64,000 nt of DNA from Escherichia phage APCEc01: sequence record NC_029091.1; one strand, 5' to 3'. The notes beneath the pieces were generated by a model. It saw only the letters and a program-made list of their open reading frames with translations. It had not been told where the DNA came from and searched no databases. This document shows, in pieces, positions 5,841 through 55,061 of the stretch (position 1 is the stretch's first letter; every line of letters starts with the position of its first letter). The position numbers and the translations under genes are program-made.

Positions 5841-6152
5841 ATGGTTTATGTATATGCAATAGTTTATCGAGATATGGAAGGATTTACTGTCCCAGTTCCA
5901 CTTGATGAACATCGTCCTGCAGTATTTTTTAGAAAGGATATTGCAGATAAAGTTTTCGATACTTTGAAAACACAGTATAAAACAGATTTAAAAATGGGAG
6001 TTCTAAGAATGGTCGAAACTCCGCGTAAGTTCTGGTTTAATAAGCTTGAAATGAAACACGTTAAACTAGATGCGGAGACGCAAAGATTGTATCAACGAAT
6101 TCTGGACACAGGCCATATTGTTAGTATTCCAATTGCAGGGACTTTACGATGA
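5841..6152 (+). CDS. Hypothetical protein (103 aa), dda.1 position
   Basis: Tightly packed ORF with a 4-nt overlap with dda. Confidence 0.65.
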   Translation: MVYVYAIVYRDMEGFTVPVPLDEHRPAVFFRKDIADKVFDTLKTQYKTDLKMGVLRMVETPRKFWFNKLEMKHVKLDAETQRLYQRILDTGHIVSIPIAGTLR

Positions 6153-7462
6153 CATTTGATGATTTGACTGAAGGCCAGAAAAACGCCTTCAACGTTGTTA
6201 TGAACGCTATTAAAGAAAAGAAACATCATGTAACTATTAATGGGCCTGCTGGTACAGGTAAAACAACCCTTACTAGATTCATCGTTGAAGCTCTTATTTC
6301 TGCCGGAGAATCAGGTATTATTTTAGCAGCCCCTACACATGCTGCTAAAAAGGTTCTAAGCAAACTTGCAGGTCAAGAAGCATCGACTATTCATAGCATT
6401 CTTAAAATCAACCCAACTACATACGAAGAAAACGTATTGTTTGAACAGAAAAAGGTTCCCGACTTAGCCTTGTGTCGTGTACTGTTATTTGATGAAGCGT
6501 CAATGTGCGACCGTTCTCTGTTTAAAATAATGTTAGCTAGTATCCCTAAATGGTGCACAGTAATTGGAATCGGCGACCGATGCCAGATTCGACCGGTAGA
6601 CCCAGGCGAATCAACTGCATATCTAAGTCCTTTCTTCACTCACAAAGACTTCGTGCAATGCAACCTTACAGAAGTTAAACGTAGCAATGCACCAATTATT
6701 GATGTTGCGACTGATATTCGTAATGGCAAATGGATTTACGATAAAGTAGTTGATGGACACGGTGTTCACGGATATACAGACCTTAAATCGTATATGATGA
6801 ACTATTTTAACGTCGTTAAAACTCCTGAAGACCTTTTCGAAAATCGAATGATGGCATTCACAAATAAGTCGGTGGACAAGTTAAATTCAATTATTCGCCG
6901 AAAACTTCTTGAAACAGAAAAACCATTTATTAAAGACGAAGTCATTGTTCTACAAGAGCCGTTTACTAAGACGTACAAGCTAGATGGCAAAAATATGACT
7001 GAAATGCTTTTCAATAATGGGCAATTCGTTCGTATTCGAGATGCTGTAGAAACGTCTACATTCGTTAAAGCACGTGGTGTTTCAGGCGAATATATGATAC
7101 GATACTGGAATCTTACAGTAGAAACATATGGGGATGATGAAGAATACATCCGCGAAGATATAAAGGTTATTTCTTCTGAAGAAGAGCTTTATAAATTCAA
7201 TTTGTTTTTGGCTAAGACCGCAGAAACATACAAATTCTGGAATAAAGGCGGTAAAGCTCCATGGAGCGAATTCTGGGATGCTAAACGTATGTTCACTAAG
7301 GTGAAGGCACTACCAGTATCAACCTTCCATAAGGCCCAGGGTATGTCTGTTGACACGGCCTTTGTTTATACACCGTGTATCCATTATGCTGATTCAGAAT
7401 TAGCTAAACAGTTATTGTATGTCGGCACAACTCGTGGTCGTTTTGACGTCCATTTTATTTGA
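6149..7462 (+). CDS. dda: Dda SF1B DNA helicase
   Basis: 437 aa. MTFDDLTEGQKNAF..., Walker A GPAGTGKTT, DEASM. Collinear with remembered T4 Dda (439 aa). Confidence 0.96.
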   Translation: MTFDDLTEGQKNAFNVVMNAIKEKKHHVTINGPAGTGKTTLTRFIVEALISAGESGIILAAPTHAAKKVLSKLAGQEASTIHSILKINPTTYEENVLFEQKKVPDLALCRVLLFDEASMCDRSLFKIMLASIPKWCTVIGIGDRCQIRPVDPGESTAYLSPFFTHKDFVQCNLTEVKRSNAPIIDVATDIRNGKWIYDKVVDGHGVHGYTDLKSYMMNYFNVVKTPEDLFENRMMAFTNKSVDKLNSIIRRKLLETEKPFIKDEVIVLQEPFTKTYKLDGKNMTEMLFNNGQFVRIRDAVETSTFVKARGVSGEYMIRYWNLTVETYGDDEEYIREDIKVISSEEELYKFNLFLAKTAETYKFWNKGGKAPWSEFWDAKRMFTKVKALPVSTFHKAQGMSVDTAFVYTPCIHYADSELAKQLLYVGTTRGRFDVHFI

Positions 7463-7471
7463 GAGAAAATT

Positions 7472-8149
7472 ATGAGCACTGATGTTATTATAGATTTTGA
7501 AACATTCGGCAATACATCAAAAGCGGCTGTTATTGACCTTGCGGTTATTGCATATAATTCCGACCCTGAAGTTGTTGAATCATTTGAAGAACTTGTTCAA
7601 CGAGGTAAGCGAATTAAATTTAATTTAGCTTCTCAGAAAGGGAAGCGAGTTTTCGCTAAATCCACTATGAAATGGTGGAAAGAACAATCGGCTGAAGCGC
7701 GTAAAAACTTGGCTCCGTCTGAAGACGATGTCACTACGCTTGAAGGCATTAAAATCTTTTTAGACTATTGCCGAGCTAATAAAGTTGACCAATGGAAATC
7801 ACAGATGTGGTGCCGTGGTATGAGCTTTGACTTCCCGATCTTGGTCGATTTGATTCGTGACCTCTATCGTGATGAAGGTGTTCTTGAACCAGAGATTGAT
7901 ACTGATAAATTAGAACCGGTTAAATTCTGGGCTCAACGTGATATTCGTACGGCAATCGAAGCTTACTCGTTGACACGAGGATTAAGTATGTGTCCATTAC
8001 CGATGGGTACGCTAAAAGGATTCGTTGCCCATGATAGTATTCATGATTGTGCTAAAGATATTTTGATGTTAAAATATGCTCAGCGTTATGCGCTTGGCCT
8101 TGAAGATGTCCCTGAGAATCCTGACCCGTTAAGTGTAAAACAGCGATAA
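7472..8149 (+). CDS. dexA: Exonuclease A (DEDDh 3'-5' exonuclease)
   Basis: 225 aa. IIDFETFG and HDSIHDC exonuclease motifs. Lies just after dda, as in T4. Confidence 0.88.
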   Translation: MSTDVIIDFETFGNTSKAAVIDLAVIAYNSDPEVVESFEELVQRGKRIKFNLASQKGKRVFAKSTMKWWKEQSAEARKNLAPSEDDVTTLEGIKIFLDYCRANKVDQWKSQMWCRGMSFDFPILVDLIRDLYRDEGVLEPEIDTDKLEPVKFWAQRDIRTAIEAYSLTRGLSMCPLPMGTLKGFVAHDSIHDCAKDILMLKYAQRYALGLEDVPENPDPLSVKQR

Positions 8150-8154
8150 AACCA

Positions 8155-8184
8155 GTTTACAACCAAGGATGGTTGGAGTATAAT
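8155..8184 (+). promoter_or_regulatory. T4-type early promoter (CCAAGGATGG family)
   Basis: GTTTAC, 18-nt spacer, TATAAT. The spacer CCAAGGATGGTTGGAG recurs at 8713, 46418 and 55061. Confidence 0.75.
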
Positions 8185-8215: not shown

Positions 8216-8710
8216 ATGAATATCAATACTACGGCTACTTACATCCTGAAAGACGAAAAACAAATCAACTGGTACGGTGCTTCAGTGCGAGCTTATGAAA
8301 AGTTTTGTGAAATTTTAGGTGCCACTCAAGGTAATAGTTTCACTATTGTTAACTTCATCAAACAAGCTGAAGGCCCTTGGTTATTCTTAGAAATTAAAAA
8401 TTCACACGGTACAATTTCTACTACCGCCCTTCCAAGCACTGACTTTGAATTGTTGATTGAAGAAGTAGAACCCGTTAAAGACATCTGTATTGATATGGAT
8501 ATCGCTTGTATGTACGGTACTCTGATTAAGCCTATTGAGCCTACTGATTTGTTGTGTAAAGCTGTTTCAATTCGACGTCCGTTCGCAGGTCCAGTGAGTG
8601 GATGGGTAACTGATCAGTGGATTGAAGACGGTGTCGAACTTCTGAACGTTGTTCATGCAGGTGATTTTAGTGTAGTTCCACGTAGTGCTGTGGTTAATAT
8701 TCTAAATTAA
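8216..8710 (+). CDS. Hypothetical protein, paralog 1 of a tandem family (164 aa; motB/dexA.x region)
   Basis: The C-terminal GWVTDQWIEDGVELLNVVHAGDFSVVP motif is shared with the next two ORFs. Confidence 0.7.
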   Translation: MNINTTATYILKDEKQINWYGASVRAYEKFCEILGATQGNSFTIVNFIKQAEGPWLFLEIKNSHGTISTTALPSTDFELLIEEVEPVKDICIDMDIACMYGTLIKPIEPTDLLCKAVSIRRPFAGPVSGWVTDQWIEDGVELLNVVHAGDFSVVPRSAVVNILN

Positions 8711-8712
8711 TG

Positions 8713-8742
8713 TTGTACATCCAAGGATGGATGGAGTATAGT
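8713..8742 (+). promoter_or_regulatory. T4-type early promoter (CCAAGGATGG family)
   Basis: TTGTAC, 18-nt spacer, TATAGT. Confidence 0.65.
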
Positions 8743-8770
8743 GAATTCAATTTAAACAAAGAGAGAAATT

Positions 8771-9235
8771 ATGATTACTATTGGTGAAATTAAGCGTGTA
8801 TCGACAGCGTCTCGTTCTAAAGCTGCAGGAAAGCTGGTTGAAGTAGTAGGACTTCGTACTAATGGCATGGGCCGTATTAAAGAAGTTAAAGTTCGAATCA
8901 TTCCTAGTTCTGGAAAAACTGAAACTCAGTTCGCCTATGTAAGTCCTAAATTCTTGGAAACTCGTGTAAGTGCCCACTTTGCTTCAAGCGATATCGTTGA
9001 GCCTACTACACAGTTCAAATGGGCCTTGTGTAAAGGTGTTGAATTCCAGACTGATAAAGAATTTGACTTCATCGATGAATACGGTTATCCAAGCAAAACT
9101 GATACTATGTGTGGCTTCATTAGCGACCAATGGGTTGAAGATGGTGAAAAGTTATACAATATCGTATTCTTAGGTGACTTCCGAGTTGTTAAAGAATCTG
9201 AAATCACTCGCTATGTGTCTCCTCGTAAAGCTTAA
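8771..9235 (+). CDS. Hypothetical protein, paralog 2 of the tandem family (154 aa)
   Basis: VSTASRSKAAGKLVEVVGL... and GFISDQWVEDGEKLYNIVFLGDFRVV are shared with 9245..9664. Confidence 0.7.
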   Translation: MITIGEIKRVSTASRSKAAGKLVEVVGLRTNGMGRIKEVKVRIIPSSGKTETQFAYVSPKFLETRVSAHFASSDIVEPTTQFKWALCKGVEFQTDKEFDFIDEYGYPSKTDTMCGFISDQWVEDGEKLYNIVFLGDFRVVKESEITRYVSPRKA

Positions 9236-9244
9236 GGAATTATT

Positions 9245-9664
9245 ATGAATATTGTAAATCTCTCTACAGGTGATTACGTATATGTATCTGTTGCTTCTCG
9301 CTCTAAAGTTGCCGGGAAGTTGGTTGAAGTTCTTTCTGTGAGTGATCCGGTTTTTGGACGTAACGAAGTTAAAGTTCGAGATGTTAATGGTAACATTGGT
9401 TACGTCTCAAGTCAGTTTATTGAACCAGAAGAAAAAGCGTTCAAATGGAAACTGTGCAGGTCAGTTTTAGTTGTAAAAGACCATGAATTTACTATTGCTG
9501 CCGCAACTGATGGGTCTCCATGGACAACGAATCAAGTCGCTGGTTTTATTTCAGACCAATGGGTTGAAGATGGTGTTAAGCTTTATAACATCGTTTTCGC
9601 CGGACAGTTCATGGTAGTTCCTGAATTCCAAATCAAAGGATATAGCCAAGCATCTTTTGCATAA
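9245..9664 (+). CDS. Hypothetical protein, paralog 3 of the tandem family (139 aa)
   Basis: VSVASRSKVAGKLVEVLSV... and GFISDQWVEDGVKLYNIVFAGQFMVVP. AAGGAA SD. Confidence 0.7.
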   Translation: MNIVNLSTGDYVYVSVASRSKVAGKLVEVLSVSDPVFGRNEVKVRDVNGNIGYVSSQFIEPEEKAFKWKLCRSVLVVKDHEFTIAAATDGSPWTTNQVAGFISDQWVEDGVKLYNIVFAGQFMVVPEFQIKGYSQASFA

Positions 9665-9723: not shown

Positions 9724-10248
9724 ATGTTAGTTTACCGCGTAGAACGTAGTTTTTGTACTCAACGTGAATCATTACCAGGAATTGCTATCGAAGACGGTAA
9801 AGCCGTCAGAATTTGGGAAACCTCTTGGAATAAAGAACCTCGCTCGCCATACGGTTGGTCGGGCACCGACAACTCTGAAGAAACATGGGAGTTCCTTAAT
9901 AAGCATGGAATACTCTCAGGTAACTTCTACCATCACGGCGACAACTATAATGTCCCTAATCGTCCTACAGTAAATGAAGACAAACTCCTTGAACAAAATA
10001 TCTTAAGATACTATAGAATTGAGCACACATTTGAATTGAACGAAGATTGGGCTCAAGGGTTCTATTTTGGATTTGAAAGTGTTGACGCGGTTTATGCATG
10101 GTTTGATGACCAGGTGGATGTTGAACTCTTGAAAGCTAAAGGATACTACATCGCGGTCTATGAAGCACCTGATTTCATCCTCGGAAGTTGTCAATTAATG
10201 TTTAGACGTTCATTGGCAGAACAAGTTGATTTTATTTTGCTAAAATGA
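9724..10248 (+). CDS. Hypothetical protein (174 aa, Trp-rich)
   Basis: GAGGAG SD. No motif recognised. Confidence 0.7.
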   Translation: MLVYRVERSFCTQRESLPGIAIEDGKAVRIWETSWNKEPRSPYGWSGTDNSEETWEFLNKHGILSGNFYHHGDNYNVPNRPTVNEDKLLEQNILRYYRIEHTFELNEDWAQGFYFGFESVDAVYAWFDDQVDVELLKAKGYYIAVYEAPDFILGSCQLMFRRSLAEQVDFILLK

Positions 10249-10305: not shown

Positions 10306-10533
10306 ATGAAACGTCAAATCATTAAAAACGTAACTACTGATTCAAACATCGATGAGTTTGAAGATGTTCTGTTTAATCCTGATTTAGTTGTTGTACAGAA
10401 AAACTGGACCGAATTTTTATGCTACACTGAAGTGGTTTACGTTTACGAAAAACTCGGTGATGAAATGCCTATCTATGGTATCTTCCGTGAAATCACTGAA
10501 AACGGTACAACTTATTGGAAGGAAACTTACTAA
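10306..10533 (+). CDS. Hypothetical protein (75 aa)
   Basis: ATG after GAGGAG. The track start at 10261 lies inside the promoter and is rejected. Confidence 0.65.
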
Positions 10534-10943
10534 TGGCTAATAAATTCCGCGTTAACTCATGGTACCAATTTAAAGATAAACGTGCCCAAGAAGAGTTTAT
10601 TAAAGACCATACTGATAATGGGATTTACGCACGACGTCTTGGCATGGAACCATTTAAAGTATTAGATGTTGACCATCTTGGGCGTCCTACTAAAATTGTG
10701 ACATCTACTGGCATGGTTGGATACGCAACAGGCGGTGATATTCTTGATGAAAACTTTATCTGGCTCTCTACTAGTGAAGCAGAGTTTTTTGATGAAGTGG
10801 GAAATCCATATCAAGCGTCCGAAGAGCAAGATTCTGGTGAACTTGACGAATTGTCTGAATTTCCGGTGATGACAATTACTATCGAAAATAACGACCAGGC
10901 ATGGTCTTTGTATCAAATGTTGAAAGCACATTTTAAGGAATAA
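10533..10943 (+). CDS. Hypothetical protein (136 aa), member of the dispersed two-domain paralog family
   Basis: TAATG coupling. ...[23 protein letters not shown]... and C-terminal [22 protein letters not shown] resemble ORFs 11128 and 38574. Confidence 0.7.
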
Positions 10944-11127: not shown

Positions 11128-11553
11128 ATGGCTTTTAAAGGTTTTGAAGTTGGTAAGAAATATCGTATTATCAAAGGACAGGAAGATAATTTCTTGAGAA
11201 TTCTTAATACGACGGGTAAACATCTTAATACTAATCTGCATACTACTTTATTGTCCAAAGATTTTATTGTGGAAGAGATGATTGGTTATGGTGTTTCGGT
11301 TATTGCTGTAGAAGCCGTAGGCGATTATGGCCGAACTATTCATAGTATGCAAGGTGATATTCTGCTTTATGGTGCAGAATTTAAATTCTTTGAAGAAGTT
11401 CAGGAACCAGATACAGCTGTCGATTTCAAAAAAGGCTCTATAGAATTTGTTGATGGTTCGGTGATCGTATCAGGCGATGTGGTCATTACAGTTAAAAGTG
11501 AACAAGGGCGTTTGGCTGCAATTGATGCACTTCAGAAAATTAAATTTAAATAA
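11128..11553 (+). CDS. goF: GoF-position protein (141 aa), member of the dispersed paralog family
   Basis: Lies immediately upstream of gene 39 and has the same length as I recall for T4 GoF (141 aa). The symbol rests on position and size only. Confidence 0.5.
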   Translation: MAFKGFEVGKKYRIIKGQEDNFLRILNTTGKHLNTNLHTTLLSKDFIVEEMIGYGVSVIAVEAVGDYGRTIHSMQGDILLYGAEFKFFEEVQEPDTAVDFKKGSIEFVDGSVIVSGDVVITVKSEQGRLAAIDALQKIKFK

Positions 11554-54446: not shown

Positions 54447-55061
54447 ATGTTTAAAGTTAATACTTTTTATAAAATGAATTTTAAAAATGGGGATATTACT
54501 CCACACCTTAAAAACATGTTCTCATATGACCTTATTGAGCCTTTTGAAGTTTTAGAAGTTACTGATGCCGGCTCAGTTTGTGAAATTAGAACTTCTGAAG
54601 GTAAAATTTATCAGGCCGGTGTTGGTAAATTCAGTAATTGTTTTACTTTAATATTCTCGACCGATTTAGATGAGCATTTTATTGAATGTCCTAACCCTAA
54701 GGTCTATGAAGTTCCACATCAAGAAACTAAGAAAAATGGACCGCACGAATATACGAAGGTTGAAACTCCTCACGGCGTGATGTGGCGACATAACTCTCCT
54801 TTTGGAAGTAAAGGAACATTTGCTCAACTGGCTAAGCCCTACGACGATGAAAAATATGTAGTAGTCCTTTTATCTGAACAGGGTACTCAAGACCGTGGAT
54901 GCCAGCGTTCTGGTTTATTGAGTGAACTCGAAGCTCATAACCTAGCACGTGAATTCGTTGAGAAAAATCCTGGTTCTGAAGCTCTAGTCATGAAAGCAAT
55001 TACTCAATATATCACTGCTCAACCTGTTGTTCATCCGGTAGAAATTAATTTCATTAAGTAG
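54447..55061 (+). CDS. Hypothetical protein (204 aa); N-terminal domain related to the dispersed paralog family
   Basis: MFKVNTFYKMN...FEVLEVTDAGSVCEIRTSEGKIYQAGVGKF...DLDEHFIEC. The track start at 54417 lies inside the hairpin and is rejected. Confidence 0.65.
   Translation: MFKVNTFYKMNFKNGDITPHLKNMFSYDLIEPFEVLEVTDAGSVCEIRTSEGKIYQAGVGKFSNCFTLIFSTDLDEHFIECPNPKVYEVPHQETKKNGPHEYTKVETPHGVMWRHNSPFGSKGTFAQLAKPYDDEKYVVVLLSEQGTQDRGCQRSGLLSELEAHNLAREFVEKNPGSEALVMKAITQYITAQPVVHPVEINFIK

Follow-up and report, generated by a model that had tools for sequence, protein, structure and literature searches.

Positions 8216-9664 of the 64,000-nucleotide stretch of the Escherichia phage APCEc01 genome analyzed here (NC_029091.1; hereafter the window) carry three consecutive open reading frames (ORFs) on the plus strand, with exactly the coordinates and lengths given by a first-pass annotation that described them as a tandem triplication of a small protein family downstream of dexA. 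All three encode proteins that share a block of 27 amino acids (aa) near the C-terminus. We conclude that the dexA-cef interval of this RB69-like (Mosigvirus) phage very likely holds the known MotB family in a three-gene form, in which ORF1 encodes MotB.1, ORF2 encodes MotB, and ORF3 encodes a second, older MotB duplicate. The three genes and their shared blocks are:

ORF1, 8216-8710, plus strand, 164 aa: MotB.1 homologue, with a predicted N-terminal alpha/beta module (aa 1-85), disordered linker (aa 86-107) and MotB-type C-terminal barrel (aa 108-164).
ORF2, 8771-9235, plus strand, 154 aa: MotB orthologue, with a predicted KOW-like N-terminal barrel (aa 1-62), disordered linker (aa 66-79) and C-terminal barrel (aa 81-154).
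ORF3, 9245-9664, plus strand, 139 aa: second MotB paralogue, with both modules as in ORF2 and a far shorter linker.
Shared block of ORF1, 8600-8680, plus strand, aa 129-155: GWVTDQWIEDGVELLNVVHAGDFSVVP, the predicted core strands of the C-terminal barrel.
Shared block of ORF2, 9113-9193, plus strand, aa 115-141: GFISDQWVEDGEKLYNIVFLGDFRVVK, with terminal VVK rather than VVP.
Shared block of ORF3, 9542-9622, plus strand, aa 100-126: GFISDQWVEDGVKLYNIVFAGQFMVVP.

The common block contains the core G(W/F/Y)(V/I)(T/S)DQW(V/I)E.G..L(Y/L)N(V/I)V of the C-terminal barrel in all three ORFs. It had been described as ending the proteins in VVP; it is indeed present in each, but 9-13 residues lie beyond it in every case, so that it is not the extreme C-terminus, and the ORF2 copy closes on VVK. 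The similarity is significant in every pairwise comparison, with E values from 1e-11 to 6e-32. By BLASTP, ORF2 and ORF3 align over their full length (44% identity over 148 columns, E 6e-32), including the N-terminal module that they had been proposed to share, while ORF1 matches ORF3 (18/29 identical, E 1e-11) and ORF2 (E 3e-11) in the C-terminal domain only. Profile-profile comparison of the MotB and MotB.1 families with hhalign gives a probability of 98.7% (E 1.7e-16), and the paralogues are 35-52% identical within the shared C-terminal domain. A six-frame search of the whole 64 kb found exactly three copies of the block, with no fourth copy and no free-standing 29-aa block. ORF1-3 are paralogues through this one common domain, and ORF2 and ORF3 are full-length duplicates of one another. 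The paralogy implied by the word "triplication" stands, but the word itself overstates the position of ORF1, which on sequence comparison belongs to a separate MotB.1 lineage with its own T4 orthologue.

Profile and genome comparisons identify each of the three genes. All three proteins score above the gathering score of the Pfam motB family (PF17613; 25 bits), at 35.9 bits for ORF1, 136.6 for ORF2 and 81.6 for ORF3. The match covers the whole model in ORF2 (E 9e-40), is best over the C-terminal half in ORF3 (E 7.7e-23 overall), and is confined to the C-terminal half in ORF1 (aa 84-159, E 8.6e-9). Among PHROG families, ORF1 matches phrog_2333 over aa 1-164 (E 2.7e-82), and ORF2 and ORF3 match phrog_1671, "MotB-like transcriptional regulator" (E 1e-65 and 9e-51, respectively); against the phrog_2333 profile, ORF2 and ORF3 match only within the shared block. 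In BLASTP comparisons with T4, ORF1 is 37% identical to MotB.1 (E 2e-26), ORF2 is 48% identical to MotB (E 2e-44), and ORF3 is 39% identical to MotB (E 6e-27). The DNA of the region is 95-99% identical to that of many Mosigvirus (RB69-like) genomes, whose records label the counterparts of ORF1-3 "similar to MotB.1", "MotB" and "MotB-like"; RefSeq likewise annotates the ORF1 orthologue of phage PhAPEC2 as "similar to MotB.1". The window therefore derives from a Mosigvirus T-even phage, with ORF1 as MotB.1, ORF2 as MotB and ORF3 as the second MotB of RB69-type phages.

Gene order agrees with these assignments. In the window, dda (6149-7462) and dexA (7472-8149) are followed by ORF1-3, a motB.2-like gene, cef, goF, a 39.2-like gene and gp39; counted as ORFs, the genes downstream of ORF1-3 are a 174-aa ORF, cef, a goF homologue, a zinc-ribbon ORF, a 141-aa ORF and gene 39. 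ORF1-3 thus occupy the dexA-cef early interval of a T4-like genome. The first-pass annotation had placed them in the motB/dexA.x interval of T4. The motB part of this assignment is correct, and dexA.-1, dexA.-2 and dexA.-3 are old T4 synonyms of motB.2, motB.1 and motB, but the genes are not relatives of dexA.1 or dexA.2: BLASTP of ORF1-3 against T4 DexA.1 and DexA.2 gave zero matches, and both of those genes are absent from the window, where dexA directly follows dda (7462-7472), as they are from the other Mosigvirus loci.

AlphaFold2 models built from family alignments suggest how the three proteins are organized. The ORF2 model (pLDDT 82.7) has two all-beta modules, with strands at residues 7-57 and 89-149, separated by a disordered linker at 66-79, in keeping with the earlier suggestion of small, KOW-like beta-barrel modules. 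In the ORF1 model (pLDDT 79.8), residues 8-83 form an alpha/beta N-terminal module and residues 116-163 a five-stranded C-terminal module; the stretch at 86-106 is a disordered linker. Both modelled C-terminal domains have the same strand pattern, with a short helix ahead of the last strand, and the shared 27-aa block is predicted to be the conserved core of this small five-stranded beta-barrel. Its closest folds are Tudor, chromo and PWWP barrels; the C-terminal domain of MotB was earlier proposed to be an OB-fold (cold-shock-like) DNA-binding domain, with neighbors such as the eIF5A C-terminal domain. A search by sequence for solved structures of ORF1-3 returned none.

The N-terminal halves of the proteins fall into two types that show no relationship in sequence. 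ORF2 and ORF3 share the KOW-like signature VS.ASRSK.AGKLVEV...EVKVR, which is not found in ORF1; ORF1 instead carries, as previously noted, a different N-terminal domain containing FELLIEEVEP (residues 77-86). When only the N-terminal domains are compared, hhalign assigns a probability of 0.2% to a relationship between the MotB and MotB.1 families, and ORF1 therefore belongs to the MotB family by virtue of its C-terminal domain alone. A MAFFT alignment had hinted at distant homology between the KOW module of MotB and the N-terminal module of MotB.1, a candidate that we reject at the sequence level on the same 0.2%. The difference between the N-terminal domains of ORF1 and ORF2/ORF3 is real and represents a genuine domain replacement, upholding the domain swapping proposed for this locus.

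The replacing module has been grouped with GoF and Frd.2 in a family with an "LSm-like fold" (Kim et al. 2025, PMC12152347). The resemblance to a dispersed family that includes the goF homologue, which the first-pass annotation had noticed, therefore has a published counterpart, but our own sequence evidence for it is weak: using alignments from the fetched loci, hhalign gives the ORF1 N-terminal domain a probability of 0.5% against GoF and 34% against the ORF at 11128. A Foldseek search of BFVD with this domain returned relatives of MotB.1 and MotB, and no identifiable GoF match. Some links do appear between profiles, as the 141-aa ORF at 11128 matches phrog_2333 (E 6.6e-4), and two MotB.1 homologues, P0151 and P0166, match the GoF family phrog_622 at 6e-6 and 1e-4. 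At the sequence level the link between the ORF1 N-terminal domain and GoF is weak, and it rests mainly on the published structural comparison. The further members or candidates of the GoF-type module family in the window are:

goF homologue, 10515-10943: GoF-type module, 74% identical to T4 GoF.
GoF-like ORF, 11128-11553, 141 aa: matches phrog_622 (E 1.2e-21).
Third GoF-type member or candidate, 54447-55061, 204 aa: phrog_17531; matches phrog_622 (E 1.1e-5).

Between its two modules, ORF1 contains a further conserved element:

Linker motif, 8492-8533, plus strand, ORF1 aa 93-106: DMDIACMYGTLIKP, predicted to be disordered (pLDDT <50 over aa 86-106).

This motif, of the form D(M/T)D(I/V)A(C/S)MY...P, occurs in 89/240 retrieved family proteins, and its position relative to the N-terminal module varies. 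In ORF1 it separates the N-terminal module from the C-terminal domain; in MotB.1 homologues of ~180 aa it precedes the module, and in the single-copy proteins of Klebsiella and Enterobacter phages it falls between the KOW module and the C-terminal domain. T4 MotB.1 lacks it. The motif may be a docking peptide for a partner.

We compared gene order across 24 fetched loci and the window, plus four further records, and find that the number of MotB-family genes differs between genera:

Marfavirus and Kanagawavirus: one gene, with a KOW-like N-terminal domain and a MotB.1-type C-terminal domain, the latter 64-79% identical to that of ORF1.
Tequatrovirus, Dhakavirus and Gaprivervirus: two genes, motB.1-type and motB.
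Mosigvirus-type loci (8/8 examined) and RB3: three genes, motB.1-type, motB and a second motB.

Klebsiella phage Marfa (locus L027, 3980-4357) and Edwardsiella phage PEi20 (locus L028, 3794-4249) are examples of the first class, each with one family gene between dexA and cef. Orthologues of ORF3 with at least 80% identity occur in ~206 of 776 phage records with any MotB match, including RB69p010 and RB3_010. The MotB family is extremely narrow, with ~25 clusters (50% identity) in a set of 1.84 billion representatives: a profile search returned 26 clusters at E <= 1e-3, and the more distant ones that we read consist of a KOW module, linker and C-terminal domain. One of the matches, P0255 (842 aa, with seven matching stretches), is an Ig-like repeat protein that we rejected as spurious.

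The locus also carries evidence of recombination. In RB3 (KM606994, locus L005, 2473-3420), a Tequatrovirus, the motB modules are 85-92% identical to the Mosigvirus protein and the second motB, of 139 aa, is 90.6% identical overall to the Mosigvirus copy, while the flanking dexA is only 68% identical and both dexA and motB.2 are of T4 type, which points to a cross-genus mosaic. Two further proteins, P0036 and P0100, are natural chimeras in which an ORF2-type or T4-type MotB N-terminal domain and linker are fused to an ORF3-type C-terminal domain, the outcome expected from recombination between tandem paralogues. Together with the raised synonymous divergence of ORF2 and ORF3 described below, the RB3 mosaic and these chimeras are evidence of recombination in the interval.

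The family probably began with a KOW-like N-terminal domain joined to a short C-terminal domain of MotB.1 type, and we infer that the simplest history is one of duplication and replacement. A single ancestor with KOW module, linker motif and C-terminal domain, still present in Marfavirus and Kanagawavirus, would have been duplicated within the T-even lineage. One copy would have become MotB by divergence of its C-terminal domain and an insertion of ~14 residues, and the other MotB.1 by swapping the KOW module for a GoF-type module; a further duplication of MotB in the Mosigvirus/RB3 lineage would then have given rise to ORF3.

Upstream of each of the first two ORFs lies a promoter-like site, as the first-pass annotation had reported:

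Early-type promoter-like site 1, 8155-8184, plus strand, upstream of ORF1: GTTTAC, 18 nucleotides, TATAAT; contains CCAAGGATGGTTGGAGTATAAT; 11/12 in a sigma-70 consensus scan.
Early-type promoter-like site 2, 8713-8742, plus strand, upstream of ORF2: TTGTAC ... TATAGT; contains CCAAGGATGGATGGAGTATAGT.

Both contain a 22-nucleotide string, CCAAGGATGG(T/A)TGGAGTATA(A/G)T, that has just two occurrences in the 64 kb, at 8163 and 8721, against a chance expectation of none, and each copy is preceded by a -35-like GTTTAC or TTGTAC. The authors' own annotation of the related phage NBG1 places a promoter at the position equivalent to site 1. Further GTTTAC-N18-TATAAT sites lie elsewhere in the window, and site 1 is therefore of the general T-even early type. 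The two sites would act as early promoters for ORF1 and ORF2. No promoter-like site precedes ORF3, which starts 9 nucleotides past the ORF2 stop codon; it is therefore probably co-transcribed with ORF2. Within the ORF1 coding sequence, Rfam reports a sub-threshold Y_RNA match at 8365-8458 (28.2 bits against a gathering score of 38, E 0.011), which is most likely due to chance.

The gene following ORF3 carries a related name and belongs to a different family:

ORF4, 9724-10248, plus strand, 174 aa: MotB.2 homologue, outside the MotB family despite its name.

ORF4 is 34% identical to T4 MotB.2 (E 4e-15) and matches phrog_1106. We considered it as a MotB-family member, as it is so labelled in several records, and rejected it, finding no significant match to ORF1-3 and no Pfam motB match. 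Several GenBank records (pEB20, moha) call homologues of this 174-aa protein "MotB" or "transcriptional regulator", a label that appears to have been carried over from the gene name. In practical terms, MotB.2 homologues are often mislabelled in this way without homology to MotB.

What the three proteins do can be approached through T4 MotB, which is toxic on expression, binds DNA non-specifically, co-purifies with H-NS/StpA and has a 2-fold effect on burst size (PMC7827196 and PMC6070864). By orthology, the most likely role of ORF2 is to coat DNA non-specifically and to perturb H-NS. We propose that ORF1-3 would be transcribed from host sigma-70 early promoters in the first minutes of infection, and that ORF2, and probably ORF3, would accumulate and bind DNA tightly without sequence specificity. 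Bound to DNA, these proteins would shift how H-NS and StpA occupy it, which in turn would derepress some H-NS-silenced host genes (for MotB, on over-expression) and raise burst size modestly (for MotB, ~2-fold). ORF1 would present the same C-terminal module on another N-terminal module, of GoF type.

Several observations weigh against this reading. According to PMC6070864, knock-down of motB leaves the T4 transcriptome almost unaffected, so that the role of the family is loosely defined; ORF2 is only 48% identical to T4 MotB; and ORF3 lacks most of the linker. Even in T4 MotB, the authors consider either domain able to bind DNA, and the low hhalign probabilities given above leave the GoF-type assignment of the ORF1 module weak at the sequence level. 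For MotB.1 itself, deletion of the T4 gene leaves burst size and latent period normal, with no laboratory phenotype, and the protein has little effect in an RNA-reporter assay (PMC12152347).

In a different division of labor, the C-terminal barrel would be mainly a protein-protein module, for homo- or hetero-oligomerization or for docking to a host factor, and DNA or RNA binding would reside in the variable N-terminal modules (KOW-like in ORF2/ORF3, GoF/LSm-like in ORF1). We consider this unlikely. In its favor, many block residues (D, W, E, G, L, N, V) are invariant in all lineages while the N-terminal modules differ, the closest folds to the barrel (Tudor, chromo, PWWP) are typically peptide readers, and KOW modules are known to bind both nucleic acid and protein. 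T4 MotB.1 runs as monomer and dimer, but AlphaFold3 gives no confident MotB.1 homomultimers (both PMC12152347); moreover, a DNA-independent contact between MotB and H-NS could not be demonstrated (PMC7827196), and the MotB authors regard either domain as a possible DNA binder. A more elaborate scheme, which we judge to be quite improbable, would make the C-terminal barrel a co-assembly module for mixed coats of MotB, second MotB and MotB.1 on nucleic acid. The N-terminal "readers" in such coats would be of different kinds (KOW-like or GoF/LSm-like), and the linker motif would dock a host or phage partner.

The first-pass annotation had taken the locus to be typical of an arms race, meaning that the tandem copies would reflect recent or dynamic amplification of an anti-host or anti-defense gene under positive selection. 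Some features of the family do fit such a history: copy number is 1, 2 or 3 depending on genus, the N-terminal module has been replaced in one lineage, and the natural paralogue chimeras P0036 and P0100, the Mosigvirus-type motB copies of RB3, and high dS in ORF2 and ORF3 (0.37-0.38, compared to 0.08-0.15 in flanking genes) point to recombinational mosaicism. We estimated dN/dS with our own pairwise Nei-Gojobori code on 6-9 Mosigvirus-type alleles per gene, a crude test on a small sample, and obtained 0.13 for ORF1, 0.22 for ORF2 and 0.16 for ORF3. These values are above those of the neighboring enzymes Dda and DexA (0.02-0.03), but are not above those of small early genes such as goF (0.14), and fall to 0.10-0.16 in the C-terminal domains of ORF1-3. 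Such values indicate purifying selection on ORF1-3, as strong as is typical of small early genes. With 35-52% identity in the shared domain, the paralogues are also old. A comparison of copy number among close relatives, suggested as a check, found no variability: the identical three-gene layout is present in 8/8 Mosigvirus-type loci, and the ~206 records with close ORF3 orthologues tell against a dynamic locus as well. Between genera, C-terminal domains of the MotB.1 lineage retain 62-89% identity. PADLOC gave no matches, which is weak evidence since its library covers defense systems and not counter-defense. Within the limits of the dN/dS test, the Mosigvirus-type alleles and loci examined show no sign of recent amplification or positive selection, and we regard an arms-race origin of the tandem copies as highly improbable.

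Finally, the idea that ORF1-3 are unrelated small early genes with a chance or low-complexity similarity has nothing in its favor except the shortness of the block, and its probability is close to nil given the pairwise E values of 1e-11 to 6e-32, the Pfam and PHROG profile matches, the hhalign probability of 98.7%, and the strand pattern predicted for both C-terminal domains alike, in which a short helix precedes the last strand.

Much of the MotB family reading of the locus is already known. As reported by Patterson-West et al. (2021, PMC7827196), the C-terminal domain is common to MotB and MotB.1 while their N-terminal domains differ, one gene may derive from duplication of the other, and RB69 has two motB genes, one motB.1 and an additional 29-aa peptide. 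Publications and numerous GenBank annotations thus already cover the paralogy, the fact that MotB and MotB.1 differ in one domain, and the additional motB gene in RB69-type phages. The mislabelling of MotB.2, the narrowness of the family, and the reference frameshifts described below are useful points for anyone planning laboratory work on MotB.1 or on the part of MotB that binds DNA.

The closest comparison is with T4 MotB (NP_049626; PF17613; phrog_1671). ORF2 is 48% identical to it along the entire length, shares its KOW-like module, linker and C-terminal barrel, and lies in the same dexA-cef interval behind an early-type promoter-like site; ORF3 has the same two modules at 39% identity. 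Unlike in T4, there are two copies here rather than one, and the linkers of ORF2 and ORF3 are shorter, with ORF3 lacking ~25 residues. DNA binding, toxicity and H-NS effects have been measured for the T4 protein, whereas ORF2 and ORF3 are known from their sequences. T4 also differs in the placement of motB.2, which lies upstream of motB.1, whereas the MotB.2 homologue of the window lies downstream of ORF3.

ORF1 corresponds to T4 MotB.1 (NP_049627 / P39415; phrog_2333), occupying the same place immediately upstream of motB. Against a 143-aa version of the T4 protein, its identity is 37% over the N-terminal module and 86% over the C-terminal domain. ORF1 differs in having a 20-residue linker insert with DMDIACMYGTLIKP, which the T4 protein lacks. 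The 143-aa version is not that of the T4 reference genome (NC_000866.4 / AF158101.6; locus L004, 3643-4151, minus strand), which has ATTGGAAGAT where resequenced T4 has ATTGAAGAT. This one extra G cuts the reference MotB.1 to 119 aa, ending in DQWIGRWR. Four resequenced T4 records encode a 143-aa MotB.1 ending in DQWIEDGVELLNVVHAGEYSVVPRSAVVAILN, with the full block and a complete C-terminal domain; we aligned the DNA of two of these (MT984581, KJ477684), and the other two (HM137666, OZ209023) annotate the same 432-nucleotide gene. Other non-reference T4 records are also one base shorter in the alignment, two of them four bases shorter, and the 143-aa sequence (P0132) is found on 256 contigs. 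The plasmids used in PMC12152347 were gene-synthesized, with NC_000866.4 cited for the T4 sequences in amber-mutant plasmids, and the MotB.1 monomer was given as 13.8 kDa, the size of the NC_000866.4 ORF. Because of the gene synthesis and this size, the MotB.1 expressed in that work may be a truncated form lacking the last three strands of the C-terminal module.

RB69, of the same genus, has the same gene order and the same three family members (motB.1, motB and RB69p010). Its reference motB.1 is broken by two single-base insertions (NC_004928; locus L006, 3877-4373, minus strand), each a +1 insertion, which split the gene into a 132-aa ORF and the 29-aa ORF RB69p012, whereas ORF1 of the window is intact at 164 aa. 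RB69p012, the "Category 3" peptide of Patterson-West et al. (2021), is the displaced end of MotB.1. In a metagenomic Tequatrovirus contig (locus L023, 3417-3921), motB.1 is split into ORFs of 93 and 85 aa, through either sequencing error or occasional gene inactivation. With the T4 and RB69 reference genes both frameshifted, the practical consequence is that the true MotB.1 carries a complete MotB-type C-terminal domain.

More distant likenesses concern single modules. The N-terminal domain of ORF1 belongs to the MotB.1 branch of the GoF/MotB.1/Frd.2 family, and the GoF-type modules of the window end with an F..E(V/I)..P-type motif, but sequence similarity between branches is marginal, and ORF1 alone joins the module to a MotB C-terminal domain. 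At only 10-19% sequence identity, and with no sign of shared function or family membership, the predicted barrels of the family resemble KOW, Tudor and SH3-like small beta-barrels, such as those of NusG, Spt5 and the tandem Tudor domains of 53BP1.

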